A stretch of 45,624 bases of DNA from a phage. The notes beneath the pieces were generated by a model, which was not told the DNA's origin, did not search any database, and saw only the letters and a list, made by a program, of their open reading frames with translations. Positions 1 to 45,624 of this stretch are shown piece by piece. Positions within the stretch are counted from its first letter, which is position 1, and every line of letters begins with the position of its first letter. The position numbers and the translations under genes are program-made. The stretch is from NCBI GenBank assembly GCA_033193195.1, contig GCA_033193195.1_4326.1, one strand, 5' to 3'.

Positions 1-24
1 AAAAAAACGAGAGAGGATTTCAAA

Positions 25-696
25 ATGGTTGTTTGGTCTTTATTTGATGGTTCAGGGCTGGCTGTGAAAGATTGGGCTGAGGCTGGTCACTAGTGCTACT
101 GTTTCAACTTTGATGAGTCTGACCACGGTAGTTACGGGGATTTAAATGCAAAATTTGAACATGAGAACATCACCTACGTTAATGCCTGGATAGATGGCAA
201 CTTCGACTTTGATGTGAAGCCTGATATCATTTTAGCGTTCCCGCCGTGTACGGATTTAGCCGTGAGCGGGTCAAGGCACTTTGAGCGAAAGCGACTGGTT
301 AACCATAACTTCCAGATTGAAGCTGCGGATACATGTAAAGTTGCTTTTAACTTGGCTAATAAGTACGAAGTCCCATACATGATTGAGAATCCAATCAGCG
401 TACTGTCATCACTCTGGAGAAAGCCTAATAAGACTTTCCACCCATATGAATACGGAGGCTATTTGCCGGAAGATGATTTACACCCGTTTTTTAGCGACCT
501 AATAAAGCCAAGAGACGCATATCCTAAGAAGACATGCATTTGGTATGGCAATGGGTTTAAATGGCCAGAGGCGATTCCTGTGGACGTTAACGATGGATTC
601 TCTGACCAATACAAGAAGCTTGGTGGGAAGAGTAAGAAGACAAAGGTAATTCGCAGTCTAACTCCTCGCGGTTTTGCAAAAGCAGTCTTCATAGCA

Positions 697-714
<18 letters not shown>
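25..714 (+). pseudogene. DNA (cytosine-5) methyltransferase-like gene interrupted by in-frame TAG at 91..93
   Basis: ATG 25 preceded by GAGAGG; N-term MVVWSLFDGSG (motif I-like), then TAG at codon 23, same frame continues to AFPPCTDLAVSG (PC motif IV-like) and MIENP (ENV-like); track ORF 214..714 is the downstream part. Confidence 0.5.
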
Positions 715-21509: not shown

Positions 21510-22034
21510 TTACAGCTTACTAATCACAGACTCCAGAGCTTCCTTCATCGTTTCGACGTCGTTAGCAGAAGAGTTATTGCTTATAGTGATCTCCTGCGGT
21601 TTGTCGATTCCAAGCTCCTTGGAAATCATGCCGGGGTTAACAATGCCAGACGCTGCCAGCTGATACTTCTGCTCTCGAATCACGGAATCAATGAATGTCA
21701 TCACATCGTCATAACCCGCAGACTTCCTCCATTTCTCAATGGCACTTGAAGTAACGCCGCAGTAAAGGCAGAACCCTGTTAACGTGAATACTCGTGGCTT
21801 ATGCACAAGGCTCTCAGTGACCACGCCCTGGAAGCTGGCCGTCTCAGCCGCTTTGATTGCATTATCCTCTGCCCATGAGAAGTATTTCACAGCCAAGTCG
21901 AATAACTGTTCTGGGGTCATGATTCTGTTTTTGGCTAGAGTTGTAATGTCGGAATATTTCTTGTTGTACATAGCCTTGAAGTTGCCAGAGCGAATCTTTT
22001 CTTGCGCATGGCTGGTGAAGTTTTCGTCTTTCAT
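21510..22034 (-). CDS. terminase small subunit
   Basis: 174 aa immediately upstream of large subunit. Confidence 0.6.
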   Translation of the reverse strand: MKDENFTSHAQEKIRSGNFKAMYNKKYSDITTLAKNRIMTPEQLFDLAVKYFSWAEDNAIKAAETASFQGVVTESLVHKPRVFTLTGFCLYCGVTSSAIEKWRKSAGYDDVMTFIDSVIREQKYQLAASGIVNPGMISKELGIDKPQEITISNNSSANDVETMKEALESVISKL

Positions 22035-24620: not shown

Positions 24621-24664
24621 GTATAACAACCTATCCCAATTCATGTTTAGCAAAAAGTGCTATT
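24621..24664 (-). promoter_or_regulatory. family promoter for 24409..24588
   Basis: minus-strand AATAGCACTTTTTGCTAAACAT, TTATAC -10-like. Confidence 0.5.
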
Positions 24665-25286: not shown

Positions 25287-25886
25287 ATTCGTTACTCCTG
25301 ATTGGTTGCTCTTCGTTAAGATGAAACCATGGTATCATGAATATACGCGTTATCAAGTGTTATGTTGTGTTTATATCTGCATTGGTTACGCTTTTTGACC
25401 TCTCAGCCCAGCTATAGCTGGTGTAATTACCCTGTGTAAGATTTTACGCGGATTCGCCGGGGGTATGCATATGTATCTATATAGATAAAATTAGTAGTTT
25501 TCATAGAAAAACTATCGACCCATCAATACGACCAATCTACACCATATACATACATATATATAATAATAATAATAATATAGTAAAAGGTTGATATATATAG
25601 ATATTATTATGTAACCATTGCGTAATCTAGCGTGGTAGGCGTGTATGATTCTTCGGAAGCGCACCTCATATACACACCATAACTTCGATAACGTGTATAT
25701 CCAAATTGGCTCAGCAAGAATCAAAATCAACTTGTATGGTAGTTCATCCACCATTCATTCACCCTCACATCAATCATTGCAAATCCCGCAACAATCAAAA
25801 ACATCATTGCATTCGATGCAATATTGTTATATGTGCAATAGTAAGATTAATCATTGCAATATCTGCAACAATAGATAAATCCAACG
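25287..25886. promoter_or_regulatory. control region A: AT-rich noncoding divergent-promoter region, paralogous to 45108..45572
   Basis: shared blocks with region B (CAGCCCAGCTATAGCT; ATAATAATAATAATA..GGTTGATATATATAGATATTATTATGTAAC); palindrome TATCTATATAGATA; TTGCAA-core repeats 25760..25880. Confidence 0.6.
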
Positions 25887-33400: not shown

Positions 33401-33652
33401 TCATTCAACCTCTTTTAACCAGAAATCCAACAAATCAGCACTAATTGCTAATTTTTGGTCCATGTCTGTCATGCACAGATTACCGCACGCTGGAGAGTAG
33501 TAAATCTGTACCCATTTACCGTCCTTCGTCTTCGCGTTAACATCCACATAGTCAGGTGGAAACCAGTCATCAATAGGTATCGCTATAAACCTGGCTCCGC
33601 TACTACCATGCACTAAATCATAATGCTTTGGCTGGAAATCTAATCCAAACAT
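33401..33652 (-). CDS. hypothetical protein
   Basis: 83 aa ORF. Confidence 0.4.
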   Translation of the reverse strand: MFGLDFQPKHYDLVHGSSGARFIAIPIDDWFPPDYVDVNAKTKDGKWVQIYYSPACGNLCMTDMDQKLAISADLLDFWLKEVE

Positions 33653-38169: not shown

Positions 38170-38643
38170 ATGTGTGAAATTGACAAGCGAACTATCAACG
38201 GCAATAACGGAACCATCCGCACGCAAGACAAGAAACAGCGCAAACGACCGTCAGGCTACTACGTATTGAAAGATGAAGTAAAGGCTGGGCTACGAGCTCG
38301 TCTGGAGATGGTTCTTGATTTCTACGGCACGAAGGCCAATATCGCCAAGCAGTTAAATGTATCTCACCAGACTGTAGAGCAATGGTTTGATCGCGGGATG
38401 ATTTCGGCTAGAGGTGCCCAGAGGGCTCACAATGCATACAAGCGAAATAAGGAAGGCTTTAGAGCTACGTTCTGCCGACCAGACCTGCAATTCGACGGAA
38501 ACGGTAAGCCATTAACGCTTAGATGCAAGAAACGCCATATGCTGCGGGTTGTTACCGAAGCTGAACTAGCAACAAAGCCACCATGTCGACCATGGCGCAA
38601 GAATAAGATTGCCAACGAAGCAGCACGAAAAGCTAAAGATTAA
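38170..38643 (+). CDS. HTH DNA-binding protein, candidate transcription regulator
   Basis: GTKANIAKQLNVSHQTVEQWFDRG helix-turn-helix-like segment; GAGGTAA SD. Confidence 0.55.
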   Translation: MCEIDKRTINGNNGTIRTQDKKQRKRPSGYYVLKDEVKAGLRARLEMVLDFYGTKANIAKQLNVSHQTVEQWFDRGMISARGAQRAHNAYKRNKEGFRATFCRPDLQFDGNGKPLTLRCKKRHMLRVVTEAELATKPPCRPWRKNKIANEAARKAKD

Positions 38644-38649
38644 ATAATT

Positions 38650-38680
38650 GGATGTGCCATAATCGGTACATCCTTTTTTA
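38650..38680 (+). terminator. rho-independent terminator
   Basis: GGATGTGCC-ATAATC-GGTACATCC then T6. Confidence 0.6.
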
Positions 38681-40137: not shown

Positions 40138-40160
40138 AATTTTAGCAATTCGTGCTATTT
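40138..40160. promoter_or_regulatory. orphan copy of family element in opposite orientation to the downstream gene
   Basis: TTTAGCAATTCGTGCTATTTT with no consensus -10 in either direction. Confidence 0.4.
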
Positions 40161-43944: not shown

Positions 43945-44909
43945 AGAAGTTCTTGATACTGCTTACTTACCCACTCAGGAATCATCAAATCTTGCTCTGT
44001 AATCCCATTGCTATACCCAGGCCATACATCAAGCTTCTTGCACTGTTTGTATGTTGCTAGTGCCTCTAAATATTGTAAGCGCCCAATGCGAAGCTGCTCA
44101 TCCGTAAGCGTGTAGCACATAGGTAAGTAAGGCTCCGTTTTTTCCTGCACCAGAAGTCGAGCCACAACCTTACGCTTCTCGCTGAATGCCTTCACAAACA
44201 AATCACGCTGAAGGCTCATCTTGCAAAGGTATCCATGGTCATAAGCCGACTTACCAAATCCTCTAGGACTTGCATCTGCTGTGGTTTTGTAGTCATGGAT
44301 ATAGACAACGCCATCAACAACATCTACGTGATCAAGCCTAACCTTAACACCACACCCAAGAATCTCACCAAAGATTGATAGCTCTTTCTGTGCTGTTGGT
44401 GAGTTAATAATCGCATCGTAAGCTGGGATATTAGTCAGAACCTCGCGCATTGAGATTACCTTATCGTAATCTTTCGCAGTAACGAGCTCTTTGCCACTAA
44501 TTAACGCCTTAGCGCTCTCCTGCTGCTCAATTAACCATTTAACAGGCCAATCCTCACCAGATTTATACATCATCTCCACGAGCTCGCTATATCCCTTCCC
44601 TGACGTGCCTGAAACTCCAACTTTTTTAAGCGCTGCGGATAAAGCCGTTTGGCTAGTAATCAATCCTTCCACTTCGTCAAAGTCAGTAGCTCGCATGTAT
44701 GTTGAGTCAAACACCTCGCGCTCTAGCATCATGCAGTGACTTAGTGTGCCAAACTTAAGTGCTGCGCTAGAGTTATTGAGCTGCTTAAACTTCCATTTAG
44801 CTGGTGAGGTAGCAAGAATCTCAGCCAGTGAAGAGCCAGAGATATGGTCTTGCTCTTCGTGATATGATTCATTTGTTAGCTCGTCGTTCGTATAAACTTT
44901 AAATGTCAT
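43938..44909 (-). CDS. recombination exonuclease (PD-(D/E)xK-type)
   Basis: D..VYIHDYKTT core; paired with annealase and SSB. Confidence 0.5.
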   Translation of the reverse strand: MTFKVYTNDELTNESYHEEQDHISGSSLAEILATSPAKWKFKQLNNSSAALKFGTLSHCMMLEREVFDSTYMRATDFDEVEGLITSQTALSAALKKVGVSGTSGKGYSELVEMMYKSGEDWPVKWLIEQQESAKALISGKELVTAKDYDKVISMREVLTNIPAYDAIINSPTAQKELSIFGEILGCGVKVRLDHVDVVDGVVYIHDYKTTADASPRGFGKSAYDHGYLCKMSLQRDLFVKAFSEKRKVVARLLVQEKTEPYLPMCYTLTDEQLRIGRLQYLEALATYKQCKKLDVWPGYSNGITEQDLMIPEWVSKQYQELLK

Positions 44910-44912
44910 GGT

Positions 44913-45107
44913 TCAATCCTTAATTTTAACAATCTTAATAGCTTTCAAATCTTCTTCAGTGAAGTATCCTGTCAGCAACTCCTTGGCCTCTTCCTTTGTC
45001 TCGAATTGGTCGGCTTCAGATTTGTTGGTAGTGTATCCAGCGGGGCCACCAAAGTAGCAATCGCCGAACAGTGCGTTGTTTTTCTCTTTAATAATGAAGT
45101 ATGGCAT
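44913..45107 (-). CDS. hypothetical protein, first gene of leftward unit from control region B
   Basis: 64 aa; TTGGAC..ATCATT promoter-like and ATCGAAAGCACGC leader upstream. Confidence 0.45.
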   Translation of the reverse strand: MPYFIIKEKNNALFGDCYFGGPAGYTTNKSEADQFETKEEAKELLTGYFTEEDLKAIKIVKIKD

Positions 45108-45572
45108 TTCTCTATCTCTCTATTTTTGCGTGCTTTCGATTAGTTAATGATGCCGCACGCAAGACACACAGTCCAATTGGTATCACCGATTAATTAATCA
45201 AGTATACGCGTATAAATCCGTAACTACGTGTAGACATTGCCATTAGTTACGTTTTTCACCACTTCAGCCCAGCTATAGCTCAATGTAAATAGTGCGTATA
45301 CCGTGTATACCGATTTTTGCGGAGGGTGCATAGGTATATGCGCCACGCAATACTGTATAAAATCACATTATATAAAAATTATAACCGGAACACTCCAGAA
45401 CAGTAGTTACATGATATACACAGTAATATATATAATAATAATAATAAGAGTAAATGGTTGATATATATAGATATTATTATGTAACTATGGCGTATCAAAG
45501 CGTAACTAGGCGTATACGATTTCCCGCTGATGCATATGGTATACATAGAGTTACATCGGTTACGCGTAACCA
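45108..45572. promoter_or_regulatory. control region B: AT-rich noncoding divergent-promoter region paralogous to region A
   Basis: same conserved blocks as 25380..25650; palindrome GGTTACGCGTAACC at 45558..45571. Confidence 0.6.
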
Positions 45573-45615
45573 ACAGCACGAATAGCTAAAACTAATCCGC
45601 AAAACCATGTATAGT
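45573..45615 (+). promoter_or_regulatory. family promoter at window end, oriented toward window start
   Basis: AACAGCACGAATAGCTAAAAC, TATAGT 45610..45615. Confidence 0.5.
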
Positions 45616-45624
45616 TGGTCACAC

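Follow-up and report, generated by a model that had tools for sequence, protein, structure and literature searches.

A T1/Rtp-like coliphage sequence that appears to be a complete genome, opened within a putative regulatory unit

The window studied here is the whole stretch of phage DNA analysed, 45,624 nt read on one strand (contig GCA_033193195.1_4326.1). Its right end reads ...CAACAGCACGAATAGCTAAAACTAATCCGCAAAACCATGTATAGTTGGTCACAC and its left end reads AAAAAAACGAGAGAGGATTTCAAAATGG... Close to the right end lies a copy of an intergenic repeat element, followed by the hexamer TATAGT. Only 9 nt remain after this hexamer, and the first-pass annotation was right that the element and TATAGT have no downstream gene inside the window. 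The left end carries a short leader, a Shine-Dalgarno sequence and a methyltransferase gene, which runs into a second copy of the element. Gene order around the join of the two ends is conserved, with exonuclease VIII and a small ORF leftwards, and the methyltransferase, a lipoprotein and DUF6453 rightwards. The features are collected in Table 1.

Table 1. Features on both sides of the join between the last and the first position of the window.
Feature	Position	Strand	Basis and remarks
Drexlerviridae intergenic repeat, 21-nt copy caACAGCACGAATAGCTAAAA	45571..45591	+	Motif count, four-genome consensus and published TLS consensus
Weak 4-bp inverted repeat ACCA/TGGT bracketing the hexamer	45604..45619	+	-3.5 kcal/mol, z = -1.2, not significant; not conserved in JeanPiccard
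-10-like hexamer TATAGT (5/6; A at position 2, T at position 6)	45610..45615	+	19 nt after the repeat core; identical in JeanPiccard
Inferred transcription start	45621..45623	+	6-8 nt after the hexamer, standard sigma-70 geometry
Family-typical leader AAACGAGAGAGGA, including Shine-Dalgarno GAGG at 13-16	5..17	+	Aligned with JeanPiccard across the join
Dcm-like C5-cytosine DNA methyltransferase gene with in-frame TAG at 91-93 (codon 23)	25..714	+	Translation, identity to JeanPiccard, PHROG 757
Second element copy TAGCACGAATAGATAAA	699..715	+	Right boundary of the methyltransferase cassette; the lipoprotein gene (783-1013) follows

The methyltransferase gene matches PHROG 757 at 5e-84, and the Pfam search of its product gave no match. 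From ATG 25 the ORF reads MVVWSLFDGSGLAVKDWAEAGH, a stop and then CYCFNFD...; the frame is otherwise open to its end. The translation conserves FDGSG (motif I, FxGxG), FPPCT (motif IV, PC) and IENP (motif VI, ENx). Its C-terminal codons are encoded by the next element copy. The first-pass annotation placed the ATG correctly but missed the in-frame TAG, so the reading frame is not intact. The remainder of the product is 91% identical in amino acids to the Dcm-like methyltransferase of JeanPiccard (tblastn). Five relatives have threonine at codon 23, encoded by ACT or ACA. Compared with the nearest known relatives, CACACTTGC has become CACTAGTGC by three adjacent substitutions. These create the site ACTAGT and also an 8-bp palindrome, CACTAGTG.

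Two ways of reading through the amber codon were considered. Recoding of TAG over the whole genome was rejected, given that the long ORFs are uninterrupted under the standard code. A suppressor tRNA of the phage was rejected as well, since the genome has a single tRNA, Arg-CCT. The nearest in-frame start after the stop is GTG 214, downstream of the SAM-binding motif I. With an amber at codon 23, no suppressor tRNA or recoding, and a restart past the SAM motif, the methyltransferase is probably non-functional in a non-suppressing host. Its inactivation looks recent. Possible explanations are a pseudogene of recent date, an allele that depends on a suppressor, and an engineered mutation.

The core of the element at the right end occupies 45574-45590, with one mismatch in 17 nt. 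Its motif, TAGCACNAATNGCTAAA, occurs 18 times in the window when up to 3 mismatches are allowed, against 2.1 copies expected, and none of 100 shuffled sequences reached 18. JeanPiccard, Rtp and T1 carry 21-25 copies each. The four genomes (these three and the window) give 87 copies, with the consensus aaATAGCACnaaTTGcTAAA-N20-TATaaTtacc.cAtcgAaac. This consensus contains a partial dyad, TAGCA-N5-TGCTA, which is imperfect in the copy at the join (CAGCA-N5-AGCTA). At the join locus the repeat is conserved in JeanPiccard, A110b, IMM-001 and AN_ECEAS, and its core is nearly identical in JeanPiccard. Rfam models run over the entire window matched tRNA-Arg only; the repeat element corresponds to no known RNA family.

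The element belongs to a repeat already described in this family. German et al. (2024) report for phage TLS a 21-nt direct repeat, aaATAGCACnnnTTGnTAAAA, with 18 intergenic copies (PMC11447400). The TLS copies are oriented with transcription, about 76 nt upstream of start codons, and the same repeat is reported in T1, Rtp and Rogue1 (PMC11447400). The copies in the window resemble it in consensus, orientation, intergenic position, high number and distance to the start codon (about 75-78 nt). However, the copy at the join begins with CAGCAC instead of the published TAGCAC. The present survey also documents a fixed -10-like hexamer 20 nt downstream and a conserved leader.

This architecture is regular. 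Thirteen of the 18 window copies have a hexamer with at least 5/6 identity to TATAAT at 19-21 nt downstream, and a co-oriented start codon 66-84 nt from the start of the core. Over the four genomes, a hexamer lies at this distance in 65 of the 87 copies (75%), at exactly 20 nt in 54 of them, against a background of 0.4% per position. The hexamer hardly varies at positions 2, 3 and 6 but is loose at 4 and 5, a pattern characteristic of sigma-70 -10 elements. Further downstream, 10-13 nt after the hexamer, AAACGA is exact in 9 of the 13 copies, with CAACGA in one more, and the Shine-Dalgarno sequence follows. The copy at the join has a gap of 19 nt, TATAGT, AAACGA 13 nt further on, and ATG at +75. 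The spacing to its AAACGA and ATG exists only if position 1 follows position 45624. Thus, the joined ends rebuild the architecture of 12 other window copies.

Two copies, at 40141-40157 (minus strand) and 33436-33452 (plus strand), show no -10-like hexamer at the usual distance. A terminator-like hairpin follows the copy at 40141 instead. These copies may be decayed or have a different function.

The usual spacing between the -10 element and +1 is 7 nt. This spacing would put the start of transcription at about 45621-45623, and the leader would be about 26-28 nt long. The first-pass annotation had the ATG about 35 nt after the predicted start. Its placement of the ATG holds, but the distance would be shorter. 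It had also described the Shine-Dalgarno sequence as good, which agrees with a GAGG located 8 nt before the ATG. With this start, the dyad of the join copy would be centred near -42.

The candidate promoter is not canonical. Its -35 position reads TAAAAC, with 2/6 matches, and so there is no canonical -35. TG directly abuts the hexamer with no spacer base, which differs from the TGn arrangement of an extended -10. We also tried TTGCTA, within the repeat, as a -35 element, and rejected it at 22 nt from the hexamer. A generic scan for sigma-70 promoters and terminators over 44000-45624 did not call the TATAGT site, because it has no -35; this outcome reflects the missing hexamer and does not speak against function. 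The literature searched contained no transcription-start study of T1-like phages or Drexlerviridae. Judged by sequence features, the promoter assignment is reasonable, although non-canonical.

Related genomes were compared with the two ends of the window placed together. JeanPiccard aligns to the query spanning the join in one block, with 83.6% identity over 1240 bp and the join in its interior. At base level, TATAGTTGGTCACAC before the join and AAAAAAACGAGAGAGGA after it match TATAGTTAGTCGCAC-AAACAACGAGAGAGGA of JeanPiccard. The 1-nt gap is in the JeanPiccard row and falls at the run of A at the join. Whole-genome blastn aligns the window colinearly with the complete JeanPiccard genome, in reverse orientation, and average identity is about 76%. 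The ends of the JeanPiccard record fall near 22.0 kb of the window, and the alignment wraps through them. Positions 45624 and 2 of the window stand opposite positions 21675 and 21674 of JeanPiccard, which are adjacent bases, so the circle closes. Rtp likewise aligns colinearly over its full length, with wrapping. Rtp and AN_ECEAS are also continuous through the join locus, and both lack the methyltransferase. AN_ECEAS is the closest relative found; in the half of the window that was searched, its identity is about 92%. Each module of JeanPiccard and Rtp is present once in the window.

Because JeanPiccard, Rtp and AN_ECEAS all run across the join, the comparison supports the view that positions 1-45624 are a complete, unit-length genome. 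It belongs to a coliphage of the Braunvirinae (Drexlerviridae; T1/Rtp-like), with a circular map opened at 45624/1. This bears out the earlier proposal of a full genome. Exact 28-32-mers spanning the junction had 0 matches in IMG/VR, JGI metagenomes and GTDB genomes, and hence these collections hold no independent identical assembly. A search of the window for an end overlap from circularisation by the assembler found none. The join (45620-45624 plus 1-7) holds an A7 run where the relatives have AAACAA, six bases. It may contain a 1-nt homopolymer or circularisation error.

The packaging mode of the family gives a reason for such an opening. T1-like phages use pac/headful packaging, and their genomes are terminally redundant and circularly permuted. 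This has been reported for T1, TLS, SU57, MSK and the AHP/AKS phages (PMC11447400, PMC7718038, PMC4070988). The window encodes a small terminase like P22 gp3 (PF16677, GP3_package, 2e-12), and its TerL matches Terminase_6C. Among the relatives, the phiA2-1 record is marked circular, and the 44,219-bp vB_EcoS records present the same sequence at many different offsets and in differing strands. The likeness to the headful genomes of P22 and T1 therefore consists of the small terminase and the circular closure. In the relatives permutation has been demonstrated by experiment; for this phage headful packaging is predicted from the terminase and the relatives. Headful packaging from a pac site would produce virion DNA that is terminally redundant and partly circularly permuted. 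Assemblies of such DNA close on themselves and are written from an arbitrary base. In the window, the cut would have fallen in one regulatory unit, leaving the repeat and the -10-like hexamer on the right, and the leader, the ribosome-binding site and the gene start on the left.

For the physical ends of this phage, the relatives serve as a guide. The T1 record begins in a divergent intergenic region, with a terminal repeat annotated as 2.8 kb long. The DNA at the T1 physical ends and the early proteins of T1 were tried as an alignment reference, and they proved too divergent, with the element copies alone matching. For this reason Rtp was taken instead. Position 1 of Rtp, the place equivalent to the T1 start, maps to about 25828 of the window. 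The conventional, pac-proximal T1/Rtp start is thus some 20 kb from the window ends. Given this distance and a permuted family, the opening point appears arbitrary. The earlier wording, an arbitrary or terminal-repeat-adjacent point, is supported in its first half; the second half does not agree with the Rtp mapping.

An alternative is that the window ends are true physical ends, as in a phage that has fixed termini or short direct terminal repeats merged into one during assembly. The juxtaposition of promoter and gene across the ends would then not be realised in the virion. The window end is indeed adjacent to a homopolymer, and the three public collections gave no exact match across the junction. 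However, the three relatives are continuous through 45624/1, and the cut divides a conserved unit. Other points against physical ends at this place are the small terminase of the P22 headful type, the documented circular permutation of the family and the conventional start at about 25.8 kb. We consider this explanation very improbable. Even harder to believe is a window cut from a longer molecule, for instance a prophage or a bigger contig, with the target gene of the promoter located outside. The sole point for it is that the window contains no flanking sequence. Against it, the JeanPiccard and Rtp modules are all present once, and the colinear alignment wraps and closes gap-free. Besides, 45.6 kb fits the 43-50 kb of the relatives.

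The best explanation combines a complete genome, a cut inside a regulatory unit, the inferred working of this unit and a broken cassette. We give it, as a whole, a probability of about 0.85. The split promoter unit would then be an artefact of bookkeeping and not new biology. Circular permutation and the repeated upstream element are already documented for T1-like phages, and we add nothing new there. For annotation, the record is best treated as circularly closed. Gene and motif scans must wrap, because the methyltransferase gene together with its control region is spread over both ends. Re-orienting the record to the T1/Rtp convention (start at about 25.8 kb, reverse strand) would keep the regulatory unit whole.

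The methyltransferase gene lies in a cassette of about 730 bp, made of 45591-45624 plus 1-696. It is located between the element copies 45574-45590 and 699-715, which are direct repeats, and the window was opened 34 nt into it. Rtp and AN_ECEAS have a single element where the window has two elements and the cassette. In AN_ECEAS, the matches to window segments 44925-45590 and 697-1074 lie side by side and overlap in the one element present there. For this reason we describe the cassette as bounded by two elements. In other relatives a different gene follows this element, which is KilA in phiA2-1 and another methyltransferase in IMM-001. Since homology with the relatives breaks exactly at the element, the comparison suggests that the repeat serves as a recombination boundary. 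The cassette resembles the promoter-bounded "moron" cassettes of phages: it holds one accessory gene under a promoter element of its own, absent from the closest relatives and replaced in others. It differs from them in its boundaries, formed by the regulatory repeat of the family and not by a promoter/terminator pair, and in its cargo, which is probably inactivated by the amber codon.

As for how the unit would work, host sigma-70 RNA polymerase would use TATAGT. The upstream repeat, with its partial dyad near -42, would stand in for the missing -35. It would probably be the binding site of a phage helix-turn-helix regulator, for which the protein encoded at 38170-38643 is a candidate. Transcription would start shortly after the hexamer, at the position in Table 1, and run across the join. 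The candidate regulator is a conserved protein and matches PHROG 2856, "transcriptional regulator" (5e-82). It is a homologue of T1 gp23 and Rtp52, with 54% identity to T1 gp23. The promoter of its own gene is canonical, TTGTTA-16-TATAAT, and lacks the element.

Class II activator-dependent sigma-70 promoters include those with CRP or FNR at -41.5, or with lambda cI at PRM. Like them, the unit at the join combines a good -10 with a missing -35 and has a partial dyad near -42, a likeness of geometry only. The dyad here is imperfect, and protein binding to the repeat is putative.

Hairpins complicate this picture. Around or just upstream of the hexamer, about half of 65 copies have a hairpin of variable sequence (mean z -2.1, with 32/65 below -2). 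The sense strand folds more stably than the antisense strand (p = 0.001), and G-T wobbles in the stems are accommodated on the sense strand. At least one difference between orthologues is compensatory: AGCGG/CCGCT in Rtp and the window corresponds to AGAGG/CCTCT in JeanPiccard. Such hairpins occur in the window at 24646 (-), 26854 (+), 27634 (+), 34505 (-), 38621 (+) and 43924 (-), and also in other genomes. The one at 38650-38673 is an intrinsic terminator by pattern scan, and two T1 hairpins coincide with annotated rho-independent terminators. By contrast, the five copies in divergent intergenic regions, including the join copy and its JeanPiccard orthologue, have no significant hairpin. The bias to the sense strand suggests a role at the RNA level, beyond a simple promoter model. 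The distribution, in a small sample, is consistent with action on transcripts arriving from upstream genes.

One may therefore ask whether the repeat and hexamer form a promoter at all. The methyltransferase might be expressed by read-through from promoters in the AT-rich, highly conserved region 45400-45500. The repeat could then be an operator or stoperator, a UP-like enhancer, or an RNA signal such as a processing site or terminator. The missing -35 agrees with this. So do the options that the TLS authors put forward for their repeat, stoperator-like, enhancer-binding or UP-like (PMC11447400), as well as the hairpins of half of the copies, with their greater stability on the sense strand, and the intrinsic terminators among them. 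Nevertheless, a hexamer at 20 +/- 1 nt in 75% of 87 copies, with a pattern of the A-11/T-7 type, is unexpected for an operator or an RNA signal. The plus strand of 45100-45570 contains no canonical promoter, only weak 9-of-12 matches, and the join copy itself has no significant hairpin. This explanation seems doubtful to us.

We return to the repeat and hexamer as a promoter. Their widest interpretation is a family-wide class of promoters without -35, switched on by the conserved gp23-type helix-turn-helix protein at -42, in which the repeat is also the recombination boundary for single-gene cassettes like the methyltransferase unit. The hairpins would be terminators or insulators against upstream transcripts, which would explain their absence at the copies of divergent regions, the join copy included. 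We offer this extended interpretation tentatively, as a possibility.

Two further regions deserve mention. At 38621-38673, the gene for the helix-turn-helix regulator contains a copy of the element in its 3' end. Downstream of this copy come a terminator-like hairpin, with the -10-like CATAAT in its loop, and a T-run (GGATGTGCCATAATCGGTACATCC TTTTTT). An autoregulatory or terminator-coupled arrangement is conceivable here.

A paralogous segment of about 350 nt occurs in both divergent intergenic regions, 45180-45560 and 25320-25700. The core of this segment, ATATACA..AATATATATAATAATAATAAT..AGTAAATGGTTGATATATATAGATATT, hardly varies between the two window loci, JeanPiccard and the start of the Rtp genome. 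Repeated TACGCGT/TACGTGT motifs are present in the segment too. It may be an early promoter cluster, an origin or a pac-related sequence. Within it, positions 45408-45480 are identical to JeanPiccard, despite a genome average of about 76%.
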